A stretch of DNA of 64,000 nucleotides from an uncultured Bacteroidota bacterium (GCA_913055635.1 CAJXLK010000023.1:4610-68609); one strand, 5' to 3'. Counted from the first letter of the stretch, positions 190-35,363 are shown. Notes: generated by a model from the sequence alone, not told the origin. Numbers and translations are program-made.

Positions 190-2337
190 TTAAAGGTGGT
201 TGTCAAAATAACGGGTGATTTTTTGCATCAGGTGAATCCGGTCCCTGCCTCTGACGTTATGCTGATGGGTAGGATAGATGAAATAGTCGACCTGTACGCC
301 TTCCTGGACACAGGTTCTCAGGAAACTGAGGCTGTGCTGAGGAACCACAATATCATCCATGTATCCCTGGATCACCATCAGGTCCCCTTCAAGGCTGTCG
401 ACATAATTTTTAAGGTTGGCTTGGCGGTAACCTTGGGGATTGTCCTGGGGGGTATCCATATACCTTTCTCCATACATGACCTCATAATATTTCCAGTCAA
501 TCACCGGTCCGCCGGCTACGCCTGCTTTAAAAACCCCGGGTTTTTTAAGCATCAGGGAAGTGGTCATGAAACCTCCATAGCTCCAGCCATGGACACCAAT
601 TCTCTGGTTATTGACATAATCGAGGTTTTTCAACATTTTGACCCCCTGCATCTGGTCGGCTACTTCATGCTGTCCGAGTTTGCGGTGGATGACGTTTTCA
701 AAGGCGCGGCCCCGGGCGTCTGATCCGCGGTTATCGAGTGTAAGCATCACATAACCTTTTTGAGCCATATAATACTGCCACAGGCGGGCTCCGCCCAGCC
801 AGCGGTTTTGAACCAGTTGGGCATGTGGCCCGCCGTAGACGTAAACAATGGCCGGGTATTTTTTGTCGGGATCCCAATCGGCAGGTTTAATCAGCCTATA
901 ATAGAGATCCGTTTGCTGGTCAGCGGCTTTTATCGTAGAGATGTTCATTTCTCCCAGGGCGTAGTTTTTCAAGGGGTTTGATGCCTCGAGCAGCTTTTGT
1001 TCTTTTTCGCCGGAATGGTTGATGATCCTTATGATGCGCGGGGTGTTTTTGCTGGAGTAGCGGTCGATGATGAATGCGCGGGGTTGAACGAGGGGGCGGT
1101 GGTAGCCCGGTTCATTCGTGAGGCGGGTCAGCTGACGTGAACTCACATCAACCTTGTAAAGATGGCGCTCCAGAGGACTTTCCCTGGTGGCCATAAAAAA
1201 GAGCTGATCCCCTTCATCATTGAATCCCTTGAATTGGGTTACTTCCCACACCCCGCGGGTTAACTGGCGGATAAGCTTCCCGCTGGTGTTATAGAGATAA
1301 AGGTGGTTGTAGCCGTCGCGCCGGCTTTGCCAGACAAATCGATCGGGAGTGTCCGGCAGAAAGGTGATCGGTGCCTGCGGCTCTACATATTTCTCATGCT
1401 TTTCTTCAAAAAGGGTCTGCTCCAGTTCACCGGTCTTCGCATTGTAACGGTTGAGCTTCAAATGATCCTGATCGCGGTTCAATACTGCAATGTATATATA
1501 CTGACCCCGGGGGCCCCATTTCACATTGGTCAGATACTGATCGGCCGGCTTGCCGGTTTTTAAAAAAACAGTGTCCTGTCTGCTGAGGTCGTAAACCCCC
1601 ACTCTGACATGATGGCTTTTCATCCCTGCCATGGGGTAATCAACGGGTTGGGCACTCGCAATCCGGCTGTTGATATCGACAAAGGGATAATCCGTGACCA
1701 TGCGCTCATCTTTGCGGTAAAAGGCAAGCTTTTTACCCCGGGGCGACCAGAAAGTTCCGGTATGGATGCCAAATTCACGCCGGTGCACTTGCTGTCCGTT
1801 AACAATGTCGGAATTTTGATCATCCGTGATCTGAACAGTACTGCCCTTAAAGGATCGAACAAACAGGTTGTTTTCTCGGGTGAAGGCAATATGTTGGTTC
1901 GCCGAACAATAGTCGGGGTTTTGGGCGCTCGAATCCAAACGGGTGTGCCCCTTTAACTTTTTTTCATAGGGGTTGACCCGATACCAATGTTGTTGATGAC
2001 TGAAAACGGCCTTGTTGGGACCTGTCCAGTTGAAACGGGGCATTCGCTCGAGTTCGGGTTGGTCATCTCCAACGATGGCGTTAAGCTCTTCCAGAGATAT
2101 GATGGGCTGGGACTGATCTTGTTCCGCATCTTGCTGCATCAATCGGTTGCCTTCCAGGTATGAAAACCGGTTGGTTTGAGGGATCCACTGCAGGCGTTGA
2201 ATATTTTCCGGGGCCAGTTCCCGCCAGCCTCCTATTACAGCCTGTTTGAGAGACAATTGTTTTTGCTGGGCCATAACGCTCCATGCGGGCAATAGTAGAG
2301 AGGTAATCAGCACCAGGCTGAAGATCTTTTTTTTCAT
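190..2337 (-). CDS. S9B family dipeptidyl-peptidase IV-like serine peptidase
   Basis: Signal peptide from MKKKIFSL (ATG 2337); DPPIV_N propeller motifs (FWSPRGKKLAF, YPMAG); catalytic GWSYGG, DDIV and H in the C-terminal hydrolase domain. Confidence 0.92.
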   Translation of the reverse strand: MKKKIFSLVLITSLLLPAWSVMAQQKQLSLKQAVIGGWRELAPENIQRLQWIPQTNRFSYLEGNRLMQQDAEQDQSQPIISLEELNAIVGDDQPELERMPRFNWTGPNKAVFSHQQHWYRVNPYEKKLKGHTRLDSSAQNPDYCSANQHIAFTRENNLFVRSFKGSTVQITDDQNSDIVNGQQVHRREFGIHTGTFWSPRGKKLAFYRKDERMVTDYPFVDINSRIASAQPVDYPMAGMKSHHVRVGVYDLSRQDTVFLKTGKPADQYLTNVKWGPRGQYIYIAVLNRDQDHLKLNRYNAKTGELEQTLFEEKHEKYVEPQAPITFLPDTPDRFVWQSRRDGYNHLYLYNTSGKLIRQLTRGVWEVTQFKGFNDEGDQLFFMATRESPLERHLYKVDVSSRQLTRLTNEPGYHRPLVQPRAFIIDRYSSKNTPRIIRIINHSGEKEQKLLEASNPLKNYALGEMNISTIKAADQQTDLYYRLIKPADWDPDKKYPAIVYVYGGPHAQLVQNRWLGGARLWQYYMAQKGYVMLTLDNRGSDARGRAFENVIHRKLGQHEVADQMQGVKMLKNLDYVNNQRIGVHGWSYGGFMTTSLMLKKPGVFKAGVAGGPVIDWKYYEVMYGERYMDTPQDNPQGYRQANLKNYVDSLEGDLMVIQGYMDDIVVPQHSLSFLRTCVQEGVQVDYFIYPTHQHNVRGRDRIHLMQKITRYFDNHL

Positions 2338-2460
2338 AATTCGGGAATTTTTTAAGATGAATGCAACGAAAAACATTAGATTTGGGTAGCAATTGAGCAT
2401 TTAAACATATAAATTTTTTGTTGGAATACTGCATTCCCCACTTTCCTAATTGAAGGATAT

Positions 2461-4236
2461 ATGGAACTCAAGTTCATTGATTGGCTGATTATCTTCCTCT
2501 ACATAGCTATTGCCGTGTTTATTGGTTTGCGTTATCGCAGCCGGGCAGGGCGAAGCCTGAGTGATTTTTTTCTGGGAGGCCGCAAACTACCCTGGTTTAT
2601 AGCGGGCATTTCGATGGTAGCCACTACTTTTGCTGCCGATACGCCACTGGCGGTTACGGAGATGGTCAATCAACACGGAATTTCGGGCAACTGGCTTTGG
2701 TGGAATATGTTGATCGGGGGCATGCTGACCACTTTCTTTTTTGCCGATTTATGGAGACGGGCCAATGTACTGACCGAGCTTGAATTCATAGAGTTTCGCT
2801 ACAGTGGAAAGCCTGCGGCTTTTTTACGGGGATTTAAGAGTCTTTACCTGGGGCTTTTTTTCAATGTATTGATTATAAGCTGGGTAAATTTGGCCCTGGA
2901 AAGCATTTTACAGGTTTTTTTTGATATTCCTCAGTCCCATTTGATCTGGTATATTGGCGGGGCGATGCTTGTAGCTTCCTTTTATTCTGCACTGGCAGGT
3001 TTGCTGGGGGTGGCTTTAACCGATGCCATCCAGTTCATTATCGCCATGGCGGGTTCGATCATTTTAGCCGTGATTGTGCTTTCGACTGAGCAGGTGGGGG
3101 GCATCACCGGGTTAAAGGCACAGGTTCCGGAATGGGCTTTTAACTTTTTTCCCCGCATCGGCAGCGGGCAGGGGAGTGGGGATGTGGCCTCCACCTTATC
3201 GATCAGCTTGGGGGCCTTTCTGGCCTACATTGGTGTTCAGTGGTGGGCCAGCTGGTATCCCGGGGCAGAACCTGGGGGCGGAGGCTATGTGGCTCAGCGG
3301 ATGATGAGCACCAAAAACGAAAAGCATGCCACAGGGGCCACCCTGTTTTTTCAAATTGCCCATTATGCCATCCGTCCCTGGCCCTGGATATTGGTAGCCC
3401 TGGCCACCCTGGTGCTTTATCCCGGCCTGGAAGAAGGCAGCGAGCGGCTCGGTTATGTCATGGCCATCCGCGATTATCTCCCGCCGGGGTTGACCGGCCT
3501 GTTGCTGGTGGCCATGCTGGCGGCCTACATGAGCACCATCTCAACCCAGCTAAACTGGGGGGCCAGCTTTATCGTGAATGATTTTTATAAACGTTTTGTT
3601 CACCGTCAGCGCCCCAACAAGGAGGCATCGAGACCGGATCAACAGGGTCAGGAAAAGCATTATGTGCTGATCAGCCGCCTGACTACCATTGTGATCATGT
3701 TGATTGCCCTCTATGTCACTACCATCGTCACATCAATCACCCAGGTATGGCACTTTTTGCTTGAGTGCGGAGCCGGCCTGGGACTGGTCCTGATTTTGCG
3801 TTGGTACTGGCAGCGGGTGAACGCCTGGAGCGAGATCACCGCCACGATCGTCCCCTTTATCGTCTTTGCCGTGGCCCGTTTTGGCCTTGAGCTGCAATTT
3901 CCCGACAGTTTCTTCATTACCGTGGGCATTACTACTGTTGCCTGGATCGCGGTAACTTATCTCACCCCACGAACCGATGCTAAGGTACTGCGTCATTTTT
4001 ATCAACGCGTTCAACCTCCCGGAATGTGGAATATTGACCCGGAAATCGGCCGCCGCAAAAACAAACGCATCCCCATGCTGGTAGGCGCCTGGTTGTCTTC
4101 GATTTTATTCACTTACTCCATCCTCTTTATGATTGGTAAGGTCATTTTTATGGAATGGCTCTGGAGTTTGATCTGGTTTGCCCTGGCTCTGACCGGATTT
4201 TTGATCTTTCAACGCAATATAAAACGATTGTTTTAA
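2461..4236 (+). CDS. Sodium:solute symporter (SSS) family transporter
   Basis: Many TM helices; DFFLGGRKLPW, SMVATTFAADT, AQRMMS, AAYMSTISTQLN motifs. Confidence 0.9.
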   Translation: MELKFIDWLIIFLYIAIAVFIGLRYRSRAGRSLSDFFLGGRKLPWFIAGISMVATTFAADTPLAVTEMVNQHGISGNWLWWNMLIGGMLTTFFFADLWRRANVLTELEFIEFRYSGKPAAFLRGFKSLYLGLFFNVLIISWVNLALESILQVFFDIPQSHLIWYIGGAMLVASFYSALAGLLGVALTDAIQFIIAMAGSIILAVIVLSTEQVGGITGLKAQVPEWAFNFFPRIGSGQGSGDVASTLSISLGAFLAYIGVQWWASWYPGAEPGGGGYVAQRMMSTKNEKHATGATLFFQIAHYAIRPWPWILVALATLVLYPGLEEGSERLGYVMAIRDYLPPGLTGLLLVAMLAAYMSTISTQLNWGASFIVNDFYKRFVHRQRPNKEASRPDQQGQEKHYVLISRLTTIVIMLIALYVTTIVTSITQVWHFLLECGAGLGLVLILRWYWQRVNAWSEITATIVPFIVFAVARFGLELQFPDSFFITVGITTVAWIAVTYLTPRTDAKVLRHFYQRVQPPGMWNIDPEIGRRKNKRIPMLVGAWLSSILFTYSILFMIGKVIFMEWLWSLIWFALALTGFLIFQRNIKRLF

Positions 4237-4309: not shown

Positions 4310-5218
4310 ATGCGCTACTTTTTTCACTTTTGGAGGCATAAACCGTTAATATTCCTTGCTTTGCTGGTGGTTTTAGGGTGCGCTCAGAAAGACCGCAACC
4401 GTACTTCCCGGAAAGAGGCGCTGATGGAGAAAGAGATCGATACCACCAGTCTTTTGCTGAAATACAACGACAACCTTTTTTCGATCCCTTCCCCTTATCA
4501 GGCTGCTTATGTGATCCGCAAGCACCAGGTGCATTTCAATCAGCGTTTGCTGAATGATCCGGCCTTTTATACCCGCTATACCACCAACTTTAAAAAAGCC
4601 CTCAATATTGGCATCTATGGTACCGACCTGGGATATTTAAGCATTTTCAGCGGGGAAAAAAGGAGCCTGGAATATTTCAGTGTAATCCGAAAACTCTCGG
4701 AGGATTTGAGGTTACATAACGCTTTATCTTCAACCGACATCACGAATCTGAAGCACAGCCTCACCCGCCAGGATTCGATGATCCATTACCTGACGCAGGC
4801 CTACCGAAAATTTGATGCCTATTTAATCAAGAATGAACGCAAAAAAATTGGGGCTTTAATACTGGCCGGGGGCTGGGTGGAGAGCACCTATATACTCTCG
4901 CGCACGGTGCTCCAAACCCAGAAACGTCCCCTTGTTAACCGGCTGGGCCAACAAAAGCATGCCCTGGAAAACCTCATTGAATTGTTGTCGTCCTATTATT
5001 ATGATTCGGAGAAATATACCGAGTTGATTGATGCACTGGTCGATATTGCCTATGAATTTGACGGGGTGATCTACAATTATTATTATAAAGAACCCCTGGT
5101 CAAAGAGAAACAAAAACTCACCATCGTCCGTAGTACTTCCAATGTAGTGATTTCCGAATATCATTTAAGGAGTATTGCCAAAAAGATCAGCAAATTGCGA
5201 AATAAGATCACCACATGA
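4310..5218 (+). CDS. Uncharacterised lipoprotein (paralog of 18676..19611)
   Basis: Lipobox VLGC; shared motifs SIPSP, ALNIGIYGTDLGY, GGWVE; stop overlaps next start (ATGA). Confidence 0.8.
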   Translation: MRYFFHFWRHKPLIFLALLVVLGCAQKDRNRTSRKEALMEKEIDTTSLLLKYNDNLFSIPSPYQAAYVIRKHQVHFNQRLLNDPAFYTRYTTNFKKALNIGIYGTDLGYLSIFSGEKRSLEYFSVIRKLSEDLRLHNALSSTDITNLKHSLTRQDSMIHYLTQAYRKFDAYLIKNERKKIGALILAGGWVESTYILSRTVLQTQKRPLVNRLGQQKHALENLIELLSSYYYDSEKYTELIDALVDIAYEFDGVIYNYYYKEPLVKEKQKLTIVRSTSNVVISEYHLRSIAKKISKLRNKITT

Positions 5219-5679
5219 CATACGCGCGGTTAATATTTCTGGCATTGTTGATGGCCTGTGGGTTTGTATGGGCTCCGCCGGTTTACGGGCAGGATTCGGC
5301 CAATGTTTCCCTGGGGGATTGCACTGGATTGATGGGCAAGGAATATATCTCTGACGGGCAGGATTATAAGGCCAGGTTGAACAAGAACAACATGGCGCGG
5401 TTTCACACGGTTTTCTATGGGGGCAATCGTTATTGTCTGGTAGCTTGCAGCAACATAGAGGATCATCGGCTGATCATGAAGGTCTATGACAGCGAGCGGA
5501 ATTTGCTGTTCGACAACACCAGGCATCATCATACCCCTTTATGGCATCTGGAATTTAACTCGACTGTTCCTTGTGTTGTGGAAATCAAGGTAGAAGCAGA
5601 ACAACACATCGACAGACTGGTCAAGCTGATGATTGGCTTCAGGAAGCCTGATCAAACCCGACAAATGCCTGAACAATGA
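5215..5679 (+). CDS. Uncharacterised small secreted beta-rich protein (paralog of 18195..18662)
   Basis: Signal peptide; shared motifs YISDG, FY-x4-Y-x4-C, D-xx-RNLLFDN, MIGF; ATGA overlaps at both ends. Confidence 0.78.
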   Translation: MTYARLIFLALLMACGFVWAPPVYGQDSANVSLGDCTGLMGKEYISDGQDYKARLNKNNMARFHTVFYGGNRYCLVACSNIEDHRLIMKVYDSERNLLFDNTRHHHTPLWHLEFNSTVPCVVEIKVEAEQHIDRLVKLMIGFRKPDQTRQMPEQ

Positions 5680-8600
5680 GTGAACCTATTCTGAAAGCCC
5701 TGATGCAGCTGTTTGCCATCATTGCTTATCCAACCAGCTCGGCAGGGGACCGGCGTAAAATTGTGGAGTATTTTTTAAGACGACAGATCAATCGCCAGGC
5801 GGCCCAGGAATACCTGCAAATATTCGACTATTATTACAGCATCCACCATGAAAAGCTTAAAGAGAAGAGCAAGCGTAAGAAGCGTACGTCTTCGAGCTCG
5901 GTGAGGGTGTTGAAGATTTGCACCGAAATCAATGAGGAGCTCACCCAAAAGCAGAAAAACGTGGTGTTGGTGCGCCTGCTCGAATTTGTCAAGTCGGGGG
6001 GTGAAGTGACCGAACAACAAGTTGCTTTCATTTCGACGGTAGCCGATACATTTCATATACCGGGCGAGGAATTTTCCCTGATTAAGAGTTTTGTGCTCAA
6101 GCCCTTTGAAGAGCTGCCCGCTTCCCAGCACATCCTGATCATTGACCGCCAGCCGGAACTCTCCGGCTCGGGTATCCGTCACCTTCAAGCCCCGAACCTG
6201 GAGGGCGAATTGCGGGTGATCGAGTTGGAATCTTCCGGGATGTATTTCCTGCGTTATATCGGGGAAAGCGAAATATACCTGAACGGTCAGTTGTTGGAGC
6301 AGGATAAGGTATATGTAATGAATGTGGGGGCTTCGATCCGAAGTCCTAAAATACCACCAATCTATTATGGGGACATCATCACCCGTTTCAACATTGACCG
6401 GATTGAAGCCCAGATCACCTTTGAAGCCCGCGAAATATCCTATCAATTCAACACGGGAGATGTGGGGCTTCGGCCTATGAGCTTTTACGGGGAGTCGGCC
6501 AAGCTGATCGGGATCATGGGGGCCAGCGGTGCCGGCAAGTCGACCCTGCTCAATGTACTTAACGGTTCCTACCAACCTTCAAGCGGACAAGTGTTGATCA
6601 ACGGCATTGATATCCATCAGGATCAGGAAAAAGTGGAAGGGCTGATCGGATATGTCTCGCAGGATGACCTGCTTATTGAAGAGCTCACCGTGTTCCAGAA
6701 TCTTTACTTCAATGCCCGCTTTTGTTTTGCCAACTATACGCGTGAAGAACTGGAAAAGGTGGTGCATGATACCCTGGAAGATCTGGGTTTATACGATATC
6801 AAAGACATGACCGTGGGAACCCCGCTAAATAAGATGATCAGCGGGGGTCAACGTAAACGCCTCAATATTGCCCTGGAACTGATCCGCGAGCCGGCCGTCC
6901 TTTTCCTGGATGAGCCGACTTCGGGTTTGTCATCCCGCGACTCGGAGAACATCCTCGATCTGATGAAGGAATTAACCCTCAAAGGCAAAGTCGTCTTCGC
7001 GGTGATCCATCAACCCTCCTCCGATATATTTAAAATGTTCGATAAGCTGTTGATCCTGGATCAGGGCGGATATTTGATCTATGACGGGGAACCCATTGAG
7101 TCGCTGATCTATTTTAAATCCAGTATCCAGCACGCCAACTGGAATGAAAGTGAGTGCCCGGTTTGCGGCAACGTTAATCCGGAACAGATATTTAATATTG
7201 TCGAAACCAAGGTGCTCGATGAATACGGCAACTTTACCAATGAACGCAAAATAGCCCCTTCCGAATGGCATCAGAAATTTAAGCAATCCTCTGTTAAACA
7301 GCAGCAATCCAAGCCCAATCAGGGAGATGAACTCCCCCGGATCCACTTTAAAACCCCCAATAAATTCAAGCAATTCCTGATTTATCTTCAGCGGGATGTG
7401 CTCTCTAAACTGTCCAATACCCAGTATTTGTTCATTAACCTGTTCGAGGCACCGGTGCTGGCATTCATTCTATCTTACATCGTCAAGTATTATGACATCC
7501 ATAGCGAGCACGGTTATACCCTGGCCTCCAATTCCAACCTGCCGGTGTACATCTTCATGTCGGTTATTGTGGCCTTGTTTATTGGCTTGACCGTTAGTTC
7601 GGAGGAAATTATCAAAGACCGTAAGATATTGCGGCGCGAAGCCTTCCTGAACCTGAGCTGGAAGAGTTATCTGTTTTCCAAGATCGGGGTTCAGTTTATC
7701 ATTTCAGCCATCCAGGCCTGGCTTTTTGTTGTCATCGGCAATTCTATAATGGAGATTCCGGGGATGTTCTTTCATTACTGGCTGATCCTTTTCAGTGCAT
7801 GGTGCTTCTCCAATATGCTGGGCTTATTGATATCCGATAGCTTCAATACGGTGATCACCATCTATATCTTGATTCCCTTTTTAATCATTCCCCAGCTTAT
7901 TTTAAGCGGGGTGATTGTCAAATATGAAAAACTGAATCCCAGCATATCCAATCCCAAGAACATCCCTTTGTATGGAGAAGTTATAACTGCCCGTTGGGCT
8001 TATGAGGCTTTGGCTGTATACCAGTTCAAAAACAACGACTTTGAGCAGCCGCTTTATCCCTATGATAAAGTGATGAGCCGGGCCGATTTTAAGAAGAATT
8101 ACTGGATTACCACCCTACAGAACAAGGTCTCTTACTGTGGGCGGCACCTGGACGACAGCACCCATCAATCGCAGCTCCGCGACAACCTGGCCCTGATACG
8201 TCATGAGCTGAACCAGGAGGTGCGTTCCCCCTCGGGCCGGCTGGTGGAATTCGACCGCAGGGATGAATTGTACCCTCATCGTTTGAATCAAAAAACCATT
8301 GACAAACTTCATGATTACCTGGGAATGTTGAAGAAATATTACATCAAGCTTTACAATAAGGCCAGCAGCAAGAGGGATCAGGTGATGAGCCGGATGCAGC
8401 AAAGTGGGGAGGACAAAAAGCAGCTGATGCGATTAAGGCGAAACCATTACAATGAAAAACTGGCCGACTTTGTCACAAACAGTGGAGAGCTTCATCGGAT
8501 CATCGAATATGAAGGGGAACTGGTCCAGAAAATCGATCCCATTTTCAAAGACCCTGAATATCCATTTATCAAGGCCCATTTCTATGCCCCGCGCAAACAA

Positions 8601-8756
8601 CTGTTTGGTCAATACTACTCCACCTTTGCCGTTAATGTACTGGTTATTTGGATGATGAGTCTGATTCTCTATTTTATTCTGTATTTCCGACTTTTAAGAA
8701 AAGCCCTTGATTTTCTGGAAAATAAGAAATATGTGCTTACCAAAAAGCCACGCTGA
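5676..8756 (+). CDS. ABCG-type exporter with N-terminal TerB-like and FHA-like domains fused to NBD and ABC-2 membrane domain
   Basis: Walker A GASGAGKST, ISGGQRKR, LDEPTSGL, ABCG-type IHQPS H-loop; C-terminal TM helices; CxxC (ECPVCG); N-terminal domain calls are by resemblance only. Confidence 0.85.
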   Translation: MSEPILKALMQLFAIIAYPTSSAGDRRKIVEYFLRRQINRQAAQEYLQIFDYYYSIHHEKLKEKSKRKKRTSSSSVRVLKICTEINEELTQKQKNVVLVRLLEFVKSGGEVTEQQVAFISTVADTFHIPGEEFSLIKSFVLKPFEELPASQHILIIDRQPELSGSGIRHLQAPNLEGELRVIELESSGMYFLRYIGESEIYLNGQLLEQDKVYVMNVGASIRSPKIPPIYYGDIITRFNIDRIEAQITFEAREISYQFNTGDVGLRPMSFYGESAKLIGIMGASGAGKSTLLNVLNGSYQPSSGQVLINGIDIHQDQEKVEGLIGYVSQDDLLIEELTVFQNLYFNARFCFANYTREELEKVVHDTLEDLGLYDIKDMTVGTPLNKMISGGQRKRLNIALELIREPAVLFLDEPTSGLSSRDSENILDLMKELTLKGKVVFAVIHQPSSDIFKMFDKLLILDQGGYLIYDGEPIESLIYFKSSIQHANWNESECPVCGNVNPEQIFNIVETKVLDEYGNFTNERKIAPSEWHQKFKQSSVKQQQSKPNQGDELPRIHFKTPNKFKQFLIYLQRDVLSKLSNTQYLFINLFEAPVLAFILSYIVKYYDIHSEHGYTLASNSNLPVYIFMSVIVALFIGLTVSSEEIIKDRKILRREAFLNLSWKSYLFSKIGVQFIISAIQAWLFVVIGNSIMEIPGMFFHYWLILFSAWCFSNMLGLLISDSFNTVITIYILIPFLIIPQLILSGVIVKYEKLNPSISNPKNIPLYGEVITARWAYEALAVYQFKNNDFEQPLYPYDKVMSRADFKKNYWITTLQNKVSYCGRHLDDSTHQSQLRDNLALIRHELNQEVRSPSGRLVEFDRRDELYPHRLNQKTIDKLHDYLGMLKKYYIKLYNKASSKRDQVMSRMQQSGEDKKQLMRLRRNHYNEKLADFVTNSGELHRIIEYEGELVQKIDPIFKDPEYPFIKAHFYAPRKQLFGQYYSTFAVNVLVIWMMSLILYFILYFRLLRKALDFLENKKYVLTKKPR

Positions 8757-18194: not shown

Positions 18195-18662
18195 TCAAGG
18201 ACTGGCTTCCTTTTGCTGATCTTCCTTTTTGAGTCCGATCATGATGGCCACGCAACCGCTGATGGGATCACCCTCGCTGTCATTCTCCCCATCCTCTACT
18301 TTCAGGGATATGATCAATTGCTGGCTCGATTCCGGGATGAAATCCCATTTCATCTTGTAGCCATTGGTTTTGTTATCATACAATACGTTGCGATCGACGT
18401 CCAGCACCTGAAAATGGATCTTGGGCATGGCCGATGACTCACAGATATAAATGCGGTATTGCTGCTTGGCATAAAAGGTTTTGTACATCTCGGCGGTCTC
18501 ACCTTCGGTCAGAATGGCGGCATTGTAGTTGCCGTTGTGTATATAGGGAGCAAGTTCTTTTTGGCAAACCTGTTTGGCAAAATGCTTACATTGACTCTGT
18601 CCAAGCAGCGGTATAAGCATGAGAAAGGCCAGGATCGCTAAAGTATTCGATAGTTTGCTCAT
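18195..18662 (-). CDS. Uncharacterised small secreted Cys-containing protein (paralog of 5215..5679)
   Basis: Signal peptide; YIHNG, TFY-x4-YRIYIC, DRNVLYDN, CVAIMIG. Confidence 0.8.
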   Translation of the reverse strand: MSKLSNTLAILAFLMLIPLLGQSQCKHFAKQVCQKELAPYIHNGNYNAAILTEGETAEMYKTFYAKQQYRIYICESSAMPKIHFQVLDVDRNVLYDNKTNGYKMKWDFIPESSQQLIISLKVEDGENDSEGDPISGCVAIMIGLKKEDQQKEASP

Positions 18663-18675
18663 AACAGATGCTATT

Positions 18676-19611
18676 TTAAGAGATAAATTTGGTTCTTATT
18701 ACGTCAATTTTTTCTTTAAGTTGCTTATAAATCTGGGGTGTCATTGTTAAAGTCGTCTCCGATTTCAGGGTGGTTACATTGGTGGTGGTGTCCTTGACCG
18801 GGACAACTTTGGATGACTTAATGGTGATTTGGTCGTATATGCGCTTCAATTCCTTAATGTCCGACATGACCGACGAGAGGTGTTCATTGGAACGATGCTT
18901 CTGCTGCAACTTCATGATGGTGTTCAGGGCCATTTTCTGATCGGCTATGCGGGCAATCATCTCATTGTTGTTGATGTCCTGCTGGCTGGGGCTTTCTTCC
19001 ACCAGATGGGTGGCAATATACAGGCCCTCGACCCATCCCCCGATTAAAACAATGGTCGAAATGGCTTCCCTTTCGTTTTCTTTGAAAAAGGAGCTCGAAT
19101 TGAGGATGGTCTCGGAAATGATATCCAAAATCACATCCCGGTTGTTCACATTGGCCTCCAGGCGCTCGACGGTTTTTTGATCAATGGCGTGCATGATGCC
19201 CAGGCCTTCAGCCATTTTTTTGGCGGCATTGATGTAATCAATGGTGGTCTGGGTCTGGTCATACAAACTGGCGTAACTCAAATCGGTGGTGTATATGCCC
19301 AGATTCAGGGCCCGGCTTTTGGTGGTGACATACCTTGAATTGTGGGCAACCGGATTTAATAATTCCGGGTTGTACGATTTGCCTGCTTCCTTGAGGATCA
19401 TTGCCACTTCCAGGGGCGAGGGCATCGAGTAAAACATCTCCTTGACCTCTTTGACATCCTTGATCAATTGTTGGTCAATGGAATCAACCTGCACAACTTC
19501 TTTCTGGGAGGAACCCTCTTGGGTTTGCTTGTCTTTTTTACAACCGGGGGTAAAAACAAGGAATACAACAGCAAGGGTGGTGATCAACAAACTGAATGAT
19601 TGATTCTTCAT
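18676..19611 (-). CDS. Uncharacterised lipoprotein (paralog of 4310..5218)
   Basis: ATG 19611 MKNQSF..., lipobox TPGC; SMPSP, ALNLGIYTTDLSY, GGWVEG. Confidence 0.82.
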   Translation of the reverse strand: MKNQSFSLLITTLAVVFLVFTPGCKKDKQTQEGSSQKEVVQVDSIDQQLIKDVKEVKEMFYSMPSPLEVAMILKEAGKSYNPELLNPVAHNSRYVTTKSRALNLGIYTTDLSYASLYDQTQTTIDYINAAKKMAEGLGIMHAIDQKTVERLEANVNNRDVILDIISETILNSSSFFKENEREAISTIVLIGGWVEGLYIATHLVEESPSQQDINNNEMIARIADQKMALNTIMKLQQKHRSNEHLSSVMSDIKELKRIYDQITIKSSKVVPVKDTTTNVTTLKSETTLTMTPQIYKQLKEKIDVIRTKFIS

Positions 19612-19767
19612 GGTGGTTGCGTTTTTGATGTTTGATGCAGTTGGGTGTCTATACAAGACCGGGTGCCTGTTTGACCACGGTATCCTTTGTAAGGCTTTAC
19701 AATCAAAGCCTAAAATAAAAACAATTTTTAGATTCCCCAAAATTATTCACCGAAATTAGAAATATTC

Positions 19768-28749: not shown

Positions 28750-29157
28750 TTACTTGAGGCCCTTTTTCTGAAACAACGGGGCATACTTTTGATCAGTGCC
28801 CATGATGTGCTTGAGCAACCAGTTTTTTAGATAGGTCAGCAAGTCGATTACATCGCTGGTGTTATCGGCATCCAGGTTGGCCCGATAGCTGGCGATCTTC
28901 TCCTTGAAGTTTTCATGTTCCTGCCGGTGTGCTTCATAACCTTCAAAACCGTAAAGCTGCATGAACTTCTCCTCATGATTGAAGTGATAAACCGCGTATT
29001 CTTCAAGCTCTGAAAAGATTTTTTCCAGATCCTGGTTGCTGATTCCCTGATAGAACTTGTTGTAAAGCTCATTGATCAAGTGAACCAGGTGCTTGTGCTG
29101 ATCATCAATCGAGGGAATCTTGACCGAATAGTTGTCTTTCCATGTAATGAATTCCAT
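28750..29157 (-). CDS. Bacteriohemerythrin
   Basis: W-x3-YSV, IDDQH, HFNHEE, HRQEH, HIMGTD: full di-iron ligand set. Confidence 0.93.
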   Translation of the reverse strand: MEFITWKDNYSVKIPSIDDQHKHLVHLINELYNKFYQGISNQDLEKIFSELEEYAVYHFNHEEKFMQLYGFEGYEAHRQEHENFKEKIASYRANLDADNTSDVIDLLTYLKNWLLKHIMGTDQKYAPLFQKKGLK

Positions 29158-29182
29158 ACCATTTAAGGTTTGTATTGAAACA

Positions 29183-30418
29183 TCAGTTGAGTTGCATGCC
29201 AATAAGGGTTACGTCGTCGATTTGTTCATGGTTGCCTTTCCACTGCTCGAATCTTTGGGTGATGAAATTTTTCTGATTTTGAAGCCCCTGTTGATGAATT
29301 TCATGAAGCATTTGTCTGAACTGTTTCTTGCCAAACTTTTTGTGGTAAGGCCCGCCAAACTGATCCTGATATCCGTCGGAAAACATATAGAGCATGTCGC
29401 CGGGATGATAGTCGATCTGATGAAGGGTGAAATCCCGGGAGTCTACAAAAGCTCCTACCGGCATATTGTTGCCTTTGATTTCAAGGGGTTCTCCCTGGTG
29501 AACCAGGATAATCCGGCTGTTGGCCCCTGCAAAATAGAGTTTTTTTTCCCGGGGATGGATGGCGCAGATGGAGATGTCCATACCGTCCTGCTGGTTTTGC
29601 TCGGCTGAGCTGTTAAGCTCTTCGATGATTTGGCTCCGCAATTCATTGAGGATGAAATGGGGCTGAACAACCTGCCTGCCTTTTACAATGTCGTTCAGTG
29701 CCGTTATGCCCAGCATCGTTATCAAAGCACCGGGAATCCCGTGGCCTGTACAATCGGCTACACTGATCAGGGTGGTTTGATCCAGGCGTTGGGTCCAGTA
29801 AAAATCGCCTCCAATGATTTGTTGGGGTTTATAGAATAGAAAATAGGGAGAAAGATTCTCCTTTAACACGCTATCATCAGGAAGCATGGCATTCTGGATG
29901 CGCTCGGCATAACGAATGCTGCTGTAAATTTCCTGGTTTTGCCGGTTCAGCCTTTGTTTTTGTTTTTCGCGTTCAGTTACATCATCCACGATGAGCAAAG
30001 CCATCCGTTCACCCTGATAAGAGACGGCTTTAACGCTATAGTAAAAGTATTTGGTGAAGGTTTGTTCCCCCCGGTGAATGTACTTGGTATCATATATGTT
30101 TTTCAGGGCATCGGTGTTTTGTGAAAATATCTGGTTGATTGCATTCAGGAGCGGACACCGATGGCAGTGCTCGGAAAAACCACAGCTTATTGTTCCATTG
30201 TCGGTATACATACAATCCAGGGCATTGCCGAAGAGGCGGTTGATAGTAGCTTTCTCATCTTTGTTTAAAAGGGCAATGCCGGTTTGGTTGTAATTTTTTA
30301 TTTCCCGGTTCCTGGAGAGTACAAACACACTGGAATGCAGATTTTCCAGTACTGTATTTAAAAATGCACTGGATTGGCGGATGTTTTCCGGCTCCATACC
30401 ATGAAAGGTATTTTCCAT
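29183..30418 (-). CDS. Cys4-PAS-like domain + SpoIIE/PP2C phosphatase (SiaA-like)
   Basis: GNALDC-x9-CG-x4-CHRC; GGDFYW, ADCTGHGIPGA, DGMDI, SDGYQDQFGG, DDVT. Confidence 0.9.
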   Translation of the reverse strand: MENTFHGMEPENIRQSSAFLNTVLENLHSSVFVLSRNREIKNYNQTGIALLNKDEKATINRLFGNALDCMYTDNGTISCGFSEHCHRCPLLNAINQIFSQNTDALKNIYDTKYIHRGEQTFTKYFYYSVKAVSYQGERMALLIVDDVTEREKQKQRLNRQNQEIYSSIRYAERIQNAMLPDDSVLKENLSPYFLFYKPQQIIGGDFYWTQRLDQTTLISVADCTGHGIPGALITMLGITALNDIVKGRQVVQPHFILNELRSQIIEELNSSAEQNQQDGMDISICAIHPREKKLYFAGANSRIILVHQGEPLEIKGNNMPVGAFVDSRDFTLHQIDYHPGDMLYMFSDGYQDQFGGPYHKKFGKKQFRQMLHEIHQQGLQNQKNFITQRFEQWKGNHEQIDDVTLIGMQLN

Positions 30419-30429
30419 CTTAGAACTGT

Positions 30430-30870
30430 TTAGGGATTTGACTTGGTCTTGTCAACTTGCTGTTCAAGGTCACTTTTCATGTTTTCTTGCTGGTTGTTTA
30501 TATTTTTGGATTTTTCTTCGATGGCTTCGATTAAACCGATCAGCTTGTCCGATTCTTCCTCCAGCCGGTTGTATTGATTGGTGGCTTTTTGAAGATCGCC
30601 GGTTTTTTTCAGTTTAGGAATTTCTTCAACCACTTGATGGATAAGTTGATGCTTATCCACCAGTTGTTGCATCTCCGGGTGGTGTTTATAGGCTTCCCAG
30701 CCGACCTGATTGATCCATTGGCCCAGCTCACATTCCTGATCGGAAACGATTTTGTTTTCATCCAGGTCGTCCAGGCCAAGCAGATAGGCCTTCAATTTCA
30801 TCTTCCACATGCGGTGTTTGTGTTTGGCGTAGAAAAAGTTCAGTTCCATAGGCGCGGTTTTAGCAGTCAT
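30430..30870 (-). CDS. Stand-alone CZB (chemoreceptor zinc-binding) domain protein
   Basis: HRMW, ECELGQW, HQLIH: 3His/1Cys set. Confidence 0.85.
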   Translation of the reverse strand: MTAKTAPMELNFFYAKHKHRMWKMKLKAYLLGLDDLDENKIVSDQECELGQWINQVGWEAYKHHPEMQQLVDKHQLIHQVVEEIPKLKKTGDLQKATNQYNRLEEESDKLIGLIEAIEEKSKNINNQQENMKSDLEQQVDKTKSNP

Positions 30871-32617
30871 TGATTTTTTCTTCGGCGTTTTCGAGCTGTT
30901 TCATCCAGGTGGTGAACATCAGATCTATTTCTTGCTCATACATTTTTCGGGTTTGTTGTTCTTTTCGGGTTTGTTGTTCTTTCATTTGTTTGATTTCCTG
31001 TATTTTGCGCTCGTTGTCGTGGTTGAGTTTTTCGATTGCTTGCTTTTGTTTTTGATCCTTATCCTCAAGTTCTTCCTGAGTGGCTTTCAATTCTTCGATA
31101 TGTTGGCGGAGCTGTTCGTCCTGGGTGCGTACTTCTTCCATTTGCTGCTGGGCTTCTTCTTCCGCCTTTTTCTGTTCGCTGATATCGCGGAGCATCCCCA
31201 CGAACATCCGCTTATTGTCGAGCCAGGCTTCTTCTACCCGTATTTCAAGGGGGAAGACATTGCCCTGCTTGGTGATGCCTTGTTCATGCCGGGCTTTACC
31301 CAAAATACGCCGCTCTCCAGTTTTTTTATAGTGATCAATGTATTGGTCATGTTCCTGGGCATATTCGCGGGGCATCAGCAGGCTGACGTTTTCTCCCTGG
31401 ACTTCCGATGCAGTGTATCCAAAAAGTTTTTCGGCCGAGGGGCTGAACTGATCGATAATGCCATGGTCATCGATCGTAACAATGGCATCCATGGCGTTTT
31501 CAAAGATCATTTTATTTTTAGCCTGGCTTTGCTCCAGCGATTCCTGGGTGGCTTTCATCTCTTCCATGTTCTGGCGGAGTTCTTCCTCCTGGGAAGCAAG
31601 TTCTTCGGCTTGTTGCTGACTTTTGGCCAGCAGTTCATTGGTACGCTTGTTGATCTTGATCGAGGAGAGGGTGGCCGCTATGCTTTCGGCCAGCCGTTCA
31701 ACAAAGTCGCGGTGATGTTGCTCAAATTCGCTGAATGAAGCCATTTCAATAACCCCCAGAACTTTGTCTTCAAGCTGAAGGGGCACAATCAACAACGCCC
31801 GGGGGTTGGCATCGCCCAACCCAGAGGTGATGTGGATGTAATCATCAGGAATCTCAGTCATATAGATGGACTTATGTTCAAGGGCTACCGCCCCGACAAG
31901 CCCTTCGCCCCATTCAATTTTTTTTGTCAGATATTTCTTACGGTTGAATGCATATGCAGCTGCAAGCTCAAAATATTGCTCCTCCCCGCTTTGTTGTGCC
32001 TGAGATTGTTGATTGGCTTGAGCCTGAGCTTCTCCTTCTTCTTCATCTCCCTGCAGGATGAAAAGTCCACCCTGGTTGGCCCCTACATACTGAACCAGGT
32101 TGCTGATGATGTCGTAGGACAACTCATATAGGTCATTGTTCTTATTTTGGCGGAGGATGTCATTGAATTTGGCCAATCCATCTGATATCCAGTTCCTTCG
32201 CTCATCTTCTTTCTGCCGCTCAATTTCCTCCTGGCGGTTTTTCTGAAGGCGGTCGCGAAGACTGATCAGCACTTCTCCAATTTGATCGTTTTCTTCTAAA
32301 TCATAGGAAATATCCATATTTCCTTTTTCCAGCTCCTGTGCAAACCGAAATGCCTTTTTCTGGGTTTGATGCAGATTTTGTTTTTCCTGTTGAAGGCTCA
32401 CTTTGTCTTTCTTGCACCTTTCGCTCCGGCGAATGAACCAGAGCATCATTCCCGTAAACAGGTACATTGCCCAAATCAGAGGATTGCTTGCATGGAGCTG
32501 GCCAATGCTTTTAAAAGAAAAATGCGGATTGGTCACTTCCAGGCTCAGGATGTTGAACAAGATAATCACCATGAGTCCTGCACCCAATAATATTGGGTCA
32601 AGTCTTTTCATGCCCAT
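30860..32617 (-). CDS. Membrane sensor: 2 TM, coiled coil, GAF, FixL-like PAS, C-terminal coiled coil; no catalytic output domain
   Basis: GAF (GEGLVG, LIVPL, GVIEMAS); PAS DAIVTID...AEKLFGY...LLMP...EHDQY...GKAR...G-x2-FP. Confidence 0.88.
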   Translation of the reverse strand: MGMKRLDPILLGAGLMVIILFNILSLEVTNPHFSFKSIGQLHASNPLIWAMYLFTGMMLWFIRRSERCKKDKVSLQQEKQNLHQTQKKAFRFAQELEKGNMDISYDLEENDQIGEVLISLRDRLQKNRQEEIERQKEDERRNWISDGLAKFNDILRQNKNNDLYELSYDIISNLVQYVGANQGGLFILQGDEEEGEAQAQANQQSQAQQSGEEQYFELAAAYAFNRKKYLTKKIEWGEGLVGAVALEHKSIYMTEIPDDYIHITSGLGDANPRALLIVPLQLEDKVLGVIEMASFSEFEQHHRDFVERLAESIAATLSSIKINKRTNELLAKSQQQAEELASQEEELRQNMEEMKATQESLEQSQAKNKMIFENAMDAIVTIDDHGIIDQFSPSAEKLFGYTASEVQGENVSLLMPREYAQEHDQYIDHYKKTGERRILGKARHEQGITKQGNVFPLEIRVEEAWLDNKRMFVGMLRDISEQKKAEEEAQQQMEEVRTQDEQLRQHIEELKATQEELEDKDQKQKQAIEKLNHDNERKIQEIKQMKEQQTRKEQQTRKMYEQEIDLMFTTWMKQLENAEEKINDC

Positions 32618-32939
32618 AAGTGGAGATGTTTTTAGTTTATTTCCATCGCAGAATATAATATGGAACCTGCAAACTTGGAAAAATTTTGTTTAATATCAAA
32701 GGGGGTCATACCATCCATTTTATTGGGTTTGAATGGCTCGAAGGCGGTGGTTGTTTAATGTTTTAGCATGAAGGTATTTATATGTGTGTATATATACAAT
32801 AACCTGATATATATCATGGGTGAATGGATAAGTTATTGCGTGTTTTTGTTCGGAGATTTTCAGCCTTCAAGCAGGATAGAACTACTGAAAGGTCCATTTG
32901 TTGGTGCGGAGACTGATTTTTACCGGGAGGAGAGGGGAA

Positions 32940-33716
32940 TCAGAATTTTACGCCCAGAACCGTTACGTCATCAACCTGGTCTTTGTTGCCTTTCCACTGG
33001 TTGAAGTTTTCCTGCATGGCTCGTTTTTGCTCATCGAGATTTTGGTGGCGAATATTACGGATCAATTCCTTGAATCTTTGCTTACCAAATTTTTTATCGA
33101 TGCGTTGTCCGAATTGGTTTTTATACCCGTCCGTAAACAGGTAGATCATATCGCCGGGTTGATAACCAATTTCACGGACGGTAAAATCGGTATCATCCCA
33201 AAAGGGGCCCACGGGCATGTTGTTGCCTTTAATCTCGATCATTTCGTTTTGGCGCACCACCAGGATGGAGCTGTTCGCGCCTGCAAACATAAATGATTGG
33301 CTATTCGGGTTGACCGAGCAAATGGCAATGTCCATGCCATCGTAATGGTTCAGGTTGTCCGATTCATTGAGTTCTCCCACGATCTGCCCCCGTAATTTTT
33401 TGAGGATGACGTTGGGGTGGGTTTCTTTTTGCGATTTCACAATGTCATTCAGGGCGCTTATGCCCAACATGGTGATCAGTGCCCCGGGGATTCCATGGCC
33501 GGTGCAATCGCCAACACTCAATATGGTATGTTCGCCTCGTTCACTGGTCCAGTAGAAATCGCCGCCTACAATGTTTTTGGGTCGGTAGAAAAGGAAATAA
33601 TCGGCGAATAACTCTTTAAAATCCTTTTCATCCGGCAAAAGAGCTTTCTGAATCCTTTCAGCATACCGGAAACTAATGGATATTTCTTCGTTTTGTTCGC
33701 CAAGCATTTTTTCCAT
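32940..33716 (-). CDS. SpoIIE/PP2C phosphatase without sensor domain (paralog of 29183..30418)
   Basis: RYAERIQ, GGDFYW, DCTGHGIPGALITMLG, DGMDI, TDGY, DDVT. Confidence 0.88.
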   Translation of the reverse strand: MEKMLGEQNEEISISFRYAERIQKALLPDEKDFKELFADYFLFYRPKNIVGGDFYWTSERGEHTILSVGDCTGHGIPGALITMLGISALNDIVKSQKETHPNVILKKLRGQIVGELNESDNLNHYDGMDIAICSVNPNSQSFMFAGANSSILVVRQNEMIEIKGNNMPVGPFWDDTDFTVREIGYQPGDMIYLFTDGYKNQFGQRIDKKFGKQRFKELIRNIRHQNLDEQKRAMQENFNQWKGNKDQVDDVTVLGVKF

Positions 33717-34191: not shown

Positions 34192-35363
34192 TTGTCCAAA
34201 CGAACGGGGGGTAAATCAACCACCGCCGAGGTTAAAACGGTGGTAGAAGAGAAAGAACTCGCTGCCCGGTGGTTGGTCATAGAGAGCGATCCCTCAAAGG
34301 CCAATGTGTTTATTGACGGTAAACTGGCTGGCAGGACGCCATTTCACCGGAAATATGAAGAAGGCGAATATACCTACCGCATTGAAAAAAGCCGCTACCA
34401 CAACAAAGCAGGCAAGATTACCCTAAAAGGTGAAAAAAAGAGCTTGCAAATTGAGTTGAAACCCAATTTTGGAGATATACAAGTTACATCAGTACCCGAA
34501 GAGGGGATGATGATCTTTCTCGACGGAGAAAATACGGGTAAGGAAACCCCGGCCACTTTGAACGAAATATCCTCGGGTGAACATACCCTTCAATTGCAAA
34601 GCCGCTGGTATCAACCCCAGACCAAAAAGGTAACCGTGAAGGAGGAACAAACCACAGCTGCAGATTTTAAAATGGAACCGGCTTTTGCCAATATCACCGT
34701 ACAAACACAACCGGAAATGCGGATGTCGTTTCAACCCCAATCAAGGCGGAAGTTTATGTGGATGGAGACAAAAAGGGCATCACCCCTTTAACCCTCAGCG
34801 ATTTTCTGGTTGGAAAATACAACCTGAAAATTTCAAAACAGGGCTATGGTACGGTTACAAAAACGCTGACCATTCAGGAAGGCGAGACCATCTCGGTTGA
34901 TGCGCAATTGCCCCAGGCCAAAAAAGTTGCCATCACCAGCCAGCCTTCCGGGGCAGATCTGTATATCGACGGCAGTTATATAGGCAAAACCCCTTATGAG
35001 GGTGAATTGGGTTTTGGAAGAAGAAAAGTGAAAATGATAAATGGAGAAAGAACGAAGCAGAGAAGCATTCATGTTACAGATGGAGGAAAAGACATATGGA
35101 GGTTTGAAGTTTTTGCAAATAAAGGAACTTTTATTGACTCCCGCGATGGCCAAACTTATGAGTGGGTGCGTATAGGCGACCAGGTGTGGATGGCCGAGAA
35201 CCTGAATTACGATCAGGATGCTTATGGCGATGATAAGTGTTATAATAATGATCCATCCAATAGCGATACTTACGGGCGTTTATATAACTGGGATGCTGTA
35301 ATGCAGGGTGAAAGCAGCAGCCATCGCAACTATAAGACACCTCACATGCTGATCGGAGGCTGA
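34192..35363 (+). pseudogene. Degraded PEGA-repeat + FISUMP (Fib_succ_major) domain gene
   Basis: PEGA repeats (SDPSKANVFIDG...GRTP) in two frames with a shift near 34713; FIDSRDGQTY...IGDQVWMAENLNY...YGRLYNW domain ends prematurely; no signal peptide or clear start. Confidence 0.8.

Follow-up and report, generated by a model that had tools for sequence, protein, structure and literature searches.

A possible Sia-gated ABCG-like transporter module with periplasmic partners in an uncultured Bacteroidota bacterium

What function is served by a lipoprotein, a small exported protein and an ATP-binding cassette (ABC) transporter that are encoded one directly behind the other, and what controls them, is the question raised by a locus in a 64,000-nt stretch of DNA from an uncultured Bacteroidota bacterium (GCA_913055635.1 CAJXLK010000023.1:4610-68609; hereafter the window, with coordinates counted from its start). 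The first-pass annotation of this locus had described an uncharacterised envelope module that may export a lipid or another hydrophobic substrate; it ended with the transporter gene and stopped short of siaB and siaC, the strongest contextual partner of the module. The reading that we propose, with a probability of roughly 0.42, is that the three genes encode an envelope exporter gated by the Sia proteins, with a substrate that is likely lipid-like. Within this reading the parts differ in strength: from their joint distribution the three genes very probably form a functional module, export of a hydrophobic substrate is slightly favoured, and for direct gating of the transporter by the Sia proteins, which is argued by analogy, we see even odds.

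The transporter and its two partners

Phylogenetic profiling, one of the checks that the first-pass annotation had proposed, revealed families that both co-occur and co-duplicate. It covered a phylum sample of 151 genomes and a family-balanced order sample of 201 genomes, whose members are related and do not represent independent trials. The transporter head was found in 95 genomes of the order sample, the lipoprotein in 91 and both in 90, while in the phylum sample head and lipoprotein were detected in the same 5 of 151 genomes. Four of the 95 head hits are weak (E above 1e-9), and the one inspected sits in a 261-aa frame; one order genome with a strong head hit that was missed by the lipoprotein search has a divergent lipoprotein adjoining the transporter gene. 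The small protein occurs in 84 order genomes, all of which contain the transporter head and 83 of which contain SiaC. In addition, lipoproteins are encoded in 41 of 41 transporter genomes tested, mostly picked from loci without a neighbouring lipoprotein. The host genome contains four full-length transporter paralogues, each adjoining a lipoprotein paralogue and three of them also a small-protein paralogue, and order genomes carry up to six transporter paralogues. A midpoint-rooted tree of 160 transporters, re-checked on 47 sequences (clade support 85-100), resolved five clades, each with its own gene order, and the lipoprotein and small-protein trees reproduce the transporter paralogue clades with few exceptions. 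Of 80 related loci, 70 extend for 2.5 kb or more upstream, and in 38 of these both partners adjoin the transporter. The suggestion in the first-pass annotation that the three proteins act together thus stands as far as their families co-occur and co-duplicate, but the trio is not obligate: a form with lipoprotein and ABC protein only exists, and gene content points to these two as the core and to the small protein as accessory. A paralogous pair of lipoprotein and small-protein genes beside uvrA in the window (Table 1) belongs to its own clade of 10 lipoproteins, and since such pairs lie 10-25 kb from a same-clade transporter in several genomes, they may serve transporters that have lost their own pair. 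No already characterised equivalent of the transporter turned up in literature and database searches, and the literature search, with subscription papers largely outside it, yielded no description of this three-gene system.

The architecture of the transporter agrees with the first-pass annotation in most respects. The nucleotide-binding domain (NBD) precedes the transmembrane domain (TMD), with Pfam ABC_tran at residues 265-416 and ABC2_membrane at 566-755, the IHQPS H-loop of ABCG/White type lies at 444-448, a head of 245 aa (about 240 extra residues had been estimated) stands before the NBD, and CPVC follows it at 494-497. The catalytic motifs are intact (Walker A, GASGAGKST; Q-loop, YVSQDD; signature, ISGGQR; Walker B, VLFLDEPT; H-loop, VIHQPS) and conserved over 160 homologues, and hydropathy indicates six transmembrane (TM) stretches (585-603, 622-640, ~670-692, ~702-733, 729-747 and 984-1002). 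The best family and PDB sequence matches are White/ABCG and PDR transporters. With these eukaryotic proteins (ABCG1, ABCG2, ABCG5/G8, Pdr5, Cdr1; TIGR00955) the window protein shares the single chain with NBD before TMD, the six TM, the IHQP H-loop and an NP-containing motif after the NBD. However, it scores 243.9 against TIGR00955, below the curated cut-off of 736.35, and unlike them possesses the 245-aa head, a TM5-TM6 loop of ~235 aa and a dedicated lipoprotein and small protein. The CPVC tetrapeptide begins a CxxCGNxNPE segment, both cysteines of which are kept in 157 of 160 homologues, and CxxCGNVNPEQIF occupies the position of the ABCG NPXDF motif, aligned to the CP...ANPAE region of Cdr1; where ABCG proteins have NPXDFXXD, according to the accessible text of PMC8100176, the window transporter has CxxC followed by NPEQIF. 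The same text places the NPXDF motif at the two-fold NBD interface, and by analogy the two CxxC segments possibly form a shared metal (zinc) or disulfide clasp there.

The helical insertion of about 200 aa that had been annotated before the last TM is present as a TM5-TM6 loop of 236 aa (median 234 aa in 155 homologues), but helicity is indicated for parts of it only: averaged over the family, the periodicity of hydrophobic residues has its peak at 94-112 degrees in the stretches 806-847 and 866-907, not throughout. Profile searches of the PDB with the head, the lipoprotein, the small protein and the loop gave no significant match (best E 0.37, 0.37, 0.29 and 0.048, respectively), and a Pfam scan of the loop alignment found no family common to more than 5 of 73 members. 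A natural deletion variant was noticed at two loci (L254:5924-8530 and L255:6817-9417), where a divergent transporter of 866-868 aa, encoded directly behind the gene for a 756-aa membrane protein, has a loop of only 145 aa and no CxxC. The expectation that loss of the loop is accompanied by loss of the lipoprotein failed in both genomes in which it could be tried.

For the N-terminal head, an AlphaFold2 model (residues 1-245, 77-row alignment; predicted local distance difference test, pLDDT, 84) places seven helices at 3-141, with a beta domain behind them at 153-222. That the helical part is TerB-like, as had been suggested from the sequence, was borne out by Pfam TerB (PF05099; 26.4 bits on the isolated head with a cut-off of 24.4, 23.2 bits in the whole protein; 71 of 77 heads matched at E<=0.05) and by structural similarity to 2h5n (Z 9.4) and TerB-family 2ou3 (Z 7.7). 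The transporter shares the fold of residues 1-141 with such TerB-fold proteins (PG1108, 2h5n; Npun_F6341, 2ou3), but here the fold is fused as a transporter head, and no ter operon genes are found among the recurrent neighbours listed. For the beta part (148-245), the top rows of the Foldseek search belong to FHA domains or to chains that contain one, with probabilities up to 1.0, albeit at E values of only 4e-3 to 7e-2, and FHA-fold structures match at Z 6-7, including FHA-2 of Rv1747 (6cah, Z 6.2); Pfam FHA weakly matches just 2 of 77 heads, and no Pfam FHA domain was found in the host genome. An Arg and a Ser are described as essential for phosphothreonine (pThr) binding by FHA in the accessible text of PMC3138270. 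At the Arg position of the window family, Arg occurs in 3 of 160 homologues, Arg158 of the window protein among them, and Gly-Arg in 0 of 160, and no conserved Ser was found, either in the register given by the order of the strands or in that of a weak profile alignment (E 0.017), for which 25 canonical FHA domains had been drawn from 30 loci. The FHA-like sandwich of the first-pass annotation therefore holds as a fold, and since the pThr-binding residues are absent, canonical phosphopeptide reading is unlikely; a canonical FHA-pThr reader was rejected as a candidate on these grounds.

The two smaller proteins are, as annotated, a lipoprotein and a secreted protein, and neither window protein matched a Pfam or NCBIfam family. 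In the lipoprotein family, which comprises 3,392 clusters at 50% identity (E<=0.001), Cys24 is aligned in 118 of 119 homologues and precedes a tether that mostly measures 30-45 aa, and the conserved residues include many Tyr and Trp. The model of the window lipoprotein (pLDDT 85.9) shows a helical protein that includes a single long beta-hairpin (254-280). A Pfam scan of the lipoprotein alignment found no family common to more than 3 of 62 members; Foldseek gave no clear match (best E 0.57, with faint EfeM/EfeO/imelysin rows at E 1.4-2.3), and the best hits of a VIA search (Z up to 11.1, to designed helical bundles) were generic bundle matches, results from which neither the novelty of the fold nor the lack of a known one follows. 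Bacteroidota surface lipoproteins carry an export signal after Cys+1 (PMC5080379, accessible text). Since this signal is absent from the window lipoprotein, which has a basic N-terminus, and occurs in a broader acidic form in just 12 of 118 homologues (0 of 118 have the minimal K-(D/E)2 or Q-A-(D/E)2), the lipoprotein likely faces the periplasm.

In the small protein, the N-terminus is hydrophobic (residues 6-24), and members of the family contain between two and six Cys each. Its Atlas neighbours are unnamed Bacteroidota clusters, one feature hit being a cluster with PPC on 10% of its members, and 0 of 56 family members matched PPC itself (PF04151); while the protein is likely a beta-sandwich, its likeness to PPC is to be taken as a lead only. 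A correlation links its gene to the lipoprotein hairpin among the 118 lipoproteins scored: where downstream DNA is available, the small gene comes after each of the 91 long, hairpin-bearing lipoproteins, with one more of these at a contig end, as opposed to 0 of 26 short lipoproteins without hairpin. One transporter clade consists of lipoprotein and transporter only, its lipoproteins lacking the hairpin, and a single short lipoprotein is likewise encoded in each of six genomes of the order sample that gave a strong transporter hit but no small protein and no SiaC.

The SiaB/SiaC pair beside the transporter

Directly after the transporter gene, siaC and siaB are located tail-to-tail with it, with 80 bases between the stop codons of the ABC gene and siaC. 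In the accessible text of PMC8457831 and PMC7647112, unphosphorylated Pseudomonas SiaC binds SiaD via N67/T68/S69, SiaC is phosphorylated on Thr (PMC7647112), and DUF1987 proteins are suggested to modulate adjacent proteins (PMC8457831). Y65-N67-T68-S69 of the window SiaC carry the numbers that these residues have in P. aeruginosa SiaC; that T68 is invariant in the SiaC alignment partly reflects selection, as motif-bearing copies were preferred. The locus thus shares with SiaABCD of P. aeruginosa a SiaB-family kinase beside a SiaC with N67-T68-S69. It shares the SpoIIE phosphatase only in paralogous loci, none being adjacent to siaB-siaC in the window, and unlike SiaABCD it appears to lack SiaD: no SiaD/GGDEF (PF00990) was found in 5 of 5 genomes including the host (a control matched in 8 of 14), and in a paralogous operon the transporter takes the output position. 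Two SpoIIE genes lie ~20 kb away in the window, in a cluster at 28750-33716 on the minus strand that encodes a hemerythrin, a SpoIIE phosphatase, a CZB domain, a GAF-PAS protein and the second SpoIIE, and may supply the phosphatase for the SiaC pair.

Of 167 transporter loci, all of which were reached through the transporter and many of which end at contig edges, 66 have SiaC at a distance of no more than 2.5 kb; the counts come from an uniterated profile, as an iterated one drew in SiaB via fusion proteins. The arrangement follows the clade: SiaC is convergent in the window clade (38 of 86 loci), precedes the transporter on the same strand in the sister clade (16 of 32) and is divergent in a third clade (10 of 10), and the adjacent SiaC proteins largely group by transporter clade, those of the third having Ser instead of Thr. 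In the host genome, the sister-clade paralogue belongs to an operon-like run on one strand (CheR-CheR-CheB-GAF-SpoIIE-SiaB-SiaC-transporter-lipoprotein-small protein), and in the third clade a SpoIIE gene is nearby. The genes past siaB vary between lineages, but the junction of transporter and SiaC is conserved. A similar trend was found at the level of genomes: 84 genomes of the order sample have head and SiaC, 11 the head only, 6 SiaC only and 100 neither, and SiaC is present in 10 genomes of the phylum sample, including all 5 with the transporter, in each of which it is adjacent. Moreover, SiaC is encoded in 16 of 16 genomes whose transporter copies are mostly not adjacent to it, and in two genomes with a single SiaC (G106, G110) it is located beside the transporter. 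A complex prediction for transporter residues 1-535 with the adjacent SiaC gave scores of 0.28 and 0.29, under the 0.32 mark, and as controls were not folded this is evidence neither way.

Several variants of the Sia genes were observed. SiaB-SiaC fusions of ~303 aa, with Ser for the phospho-Thr, occur in 4 of the 10 loci of the third clade (L130; L137, 5987-6901 on the minus strand; L138; L140), divergent from the transporter paralogue. Two tandem SiaC genes precede the transporter in L136, L145, L151 and L154, where the proximal copy has diverged further and in some cases is without the Thr motif. The host genome, with ten SiaC and six SiaB genes, contains a tandem of three SiaC-family genes that adjoins neither SiaB nor a transporter (C1:127217-128554). 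Upstream of the transporter, two small genes of ~115 aa each, which we tentatively read as Hpt-like and STAS-like, recur in 21 and 29 of 84 loci (L008, L011-L013, L015-L018 and others).

Competing explanations and a proposed mechanism

Several observations weigh against a Sia-gated exporter. The support for partnership, substrate and gating comes from comparative genomics throughout, and the kin compared are not independent; sequence, folds, motifs and gene context are what was observed, and assembly, substrate, direction of transport and gating are inferred from them. Both partners are not beside the transporter in 32 of the 70 loci. Adjacent SiaC is almost absent from the other two transporter clades (0 of 11 and 2 of 28 loci), two single-SiaC genomes (G179, G190) have it on a contig other than that of the transporter, and 8 of the 10 host SiaC genes are not beside a transporter, order genomes holding up to 20 or more, so that SiaC has other targets. 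At the window locus siaB-siaC lie on the opposite strand and are therefore not co-transcribed with the transporter, and they are part of a conserved Bacteroidales synteny block. The hairpin correlation represents a single change on the tree (support 51 with the hairpin columns excluded), which makes the link between hairpin and small gene a clean lead, not a statistic. Finally, the two genomes with the 145-aa-loop, CxxC-less transporter still hold a divergent lipoprotein elsewhere, which weakens both the loop-lipoprotein contact and the clasp.

One alternative reverses the flow of information: the complex would be a sensor or mechanotransducer and not a bulk exporter, and a cue from the periplasm or outer membrane, picked up by lipoprotein and small protein, would travel via the ATP cycle and the TerB/FHA head to SiaB/SiaC. 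That paralogues are found in the company of signalling genes (CheR/CheB/GAF/SpoIIE in one clade; in another, receiver-histidine kinases on the upstream side) would suit such a role, as would the number of paralogues per genome, the accompaniment of SiaC by the small protein and the fact that no biosynthetic or substrate gene recurs among the neighbour clusters listed. It nevertheless appears unlikely, given a full ABC2-type TMD with strongly conserved helices and a minimal form of lipoprotein and ABC protein that persists in genomes where no SiaC was found. Just as unlikely, in our view, is that the three-gene exporter is real while the Sia pair does not act on it, their adjacency being an ancient neighbourhood or a sign of shared regulation. 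The convergent, separately transcribed genes at the window locus, the conserved Bacteroidales synteny of unrelated flanking genes and the many SiaC copies elsewhere in the genomes would fit this, and since the window clade and the same-strand clade are sisters, their two SiaC arrangements may descend from one event. However, there are three orientations in three clades, one of them across the midpoint root, the ABC-SiaC junction is retained while the genes past siaB change, and SiaC is found in all 16 genomes examined with mostly non-adjacent transporters.

Less likely still is inward transport, the system being an importer or a retrograde lipid transporter and the lipoprotein an atypical binding protein handing cargo to the periplasmic loop. 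A dedicated lipoprotein partner, here near-obligate, is typical of importers, the conserved Tyr and Trp of the lipoprotein could line a pocket, and a sodium:solute symporter neighbours the module in 9 of 84 loci. Against this, NBD and TMD are fused, the best sequence matches are exporters of the ABCG/PDR type, and the lipoprotein model is a helical bundle, from which classical binding proteins differ. The remaining explanation starts from Rv1747 of Mycobacterium tuberculosis, an FHA-FHA-NBD-TMD ABC exporter with the kinase PknF (PMC3138270, accessible text). With it the window transporter shares the bacterial ABC exporter type, the FHA fold at the N-terminus and a Thr kinase gene as neighbour, and a canonical binding of pThr, for instance of phospho-SiaC T68, would be in line with the match to Rv1747 FHA-2, the phosphorylation of SiaC on Thr and Arg158 in the window protein itself. 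In contrast to Rv1747, however, the window transporter has periplasmic partners and a single degenerate FHA placed after a TerB fold, the residues named essential for pThr binding are not conserved in either register, Pfam FHA is barely matched, and the neighbouring kinase is SiaB-type, not a co-transcribed kinase of Hanks type; no Hanks kinase (PF00069) was found in the 99%-complete host genome. A transporter of Rv1747 type in this sense is highly improbable. Judged from sequence and gene context, the transporter works like ABCG proteins and loosely like Rv1747 and SiaABCD, yet departs from each in defining features.

For the Sia-gated exporter, the mechanism that we propose starts from the intact NBD, the six TM, the TerB and FHA folds and the long TM5-TM6 loop observed in the transporter. 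Two copies would pair as a homodimer, as in the ABCG family, with their CxxC-NPE segments meeting at the two-fold axis of the NBDs and possibly sharing the zinc or disulfide clasp. The lipoprotein, as co-occurrence and co-duplication suggest, would be an obligate periplasmic partner touching the transporter loop, which it could reach from its membrane anchor since the tether is flexible. A lipid-like envelope substrate would pass up the periplasmic stalk to the lipoprotein, and the small protein would dock on the lipoprotein beta-hairpin as an accessory subunit, as the one correlated change suggests. In the cytoplasm, by analogy with SiaC-SiaD, unphosphorylated SiaC would bind the head and phosphorylation of T68 by SiaB would free it, the FHA fold serving as a protein-contact surface, not as a pThr reader. 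Whether these parts amount to a new trans-envelope ABC machine, that is, a clasped ABCG homodimer with a long stalk, a lipoprotein cap, a hairpin-docked subunit and a SiaC-switched TerB/FHA head, is a tentative matter, and we put it forward as one possibility.

Locus layout and significance of the module

The features of the locus are compiled in Table 1. The three module genes, all on the plus strand, are joined by ATGA overlaps at both junctions, as the first-pass annotation had observed, and the named homologues of their products belong to Bacteroidales/Bacteroidota. Terminator-like sites in the region are at chance level (9 observed versus 9.0 expected from shuffled sequence), so that only its stem length singles out the inverted repeat at the end of the ABC gene; a sigma-70 promoter scan of the region was likewise at chance (14 matches versus 12.6 expected).

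Table 1. Positions of the module and associated features in the window
Feature	Coordinates	Strand	Remarks
Lipoprotein, 302 aa	4310..5218	+	Signal peptide, Cys24, ~35-aa tether, helical body with beta-hairpin ~254-280; no Pfam family
Small exported protein, 154 aa	5215..5679	+	Signal-like N-terminus, Cys-containing, likely beta-sandwich; no Pfam family
ABCG-like half-transporter, 1026 aa	5676..8756	+	TerB-fold 1-141, degenerate FHA-fold 148-245, NBD ~247-480, CxxC 494-497, six TM, periplasmic loop 748-983
Perfect inverted repeat, 12-nt arms, spanning ABC stop codon	8746..8769	-	T-tail on minus strand; likely terminator of siaB-siaC transcript
SiaC-family phosphoprotein, 126 aa	8837..9217	-	PF09345 160.5 bits; NF038265 103.4 bits, under 150 cut-off
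SiaB-family protein kinase, 185 aa	9234..9791	-	NF038262 158.5 bits, cut-off 85; DUF6272
Paralogous lipoprotein and small-protein pair, no adjoining transporter	18195..19740	-	Beside uvrA; separate clade

Upstream of the module, the gene for the recurrent sodium:solute symporter (2461-4236, plus strand) ends 73 bases before it on the same strand, and a gene for a DPP IV-family peptidase (190-2400, minus strand) recurs near the module in 13 of 84 loci. Further downstream in the window, a PEGA-repeat / Fib_succ_major gene (34192-35363, plus strand) appears as two overlapping open reading frames of 199 and 201 aa in different frames, possibly a frameshift or an assembly error.

The module is present in ~45% of the order sample (91 of 201 genomes), often in 3-6 copies, and was found in just 5 of the 151 genomes of the phylum sample, and two of its three families are without a Pfam model. 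Named relatives that are cultured or near-cultured are available, as exemplified by a record of Crocinitomix catalasitica ATCC 23190 (L037). If the proposed reading is true, the Sia partner switch would gain an output other than a diguanylate cyclase, and the transporter would be its first transporter output, in bacteria without cyclic diguanylate (c-di-GMP) cyclases. Likewise, the module would represent a bacterial ABCG-like transporter with periplasmic partners, which would bear on the movement of envelope lipids in Bacteroidota and on the evolution of the ABCG family.

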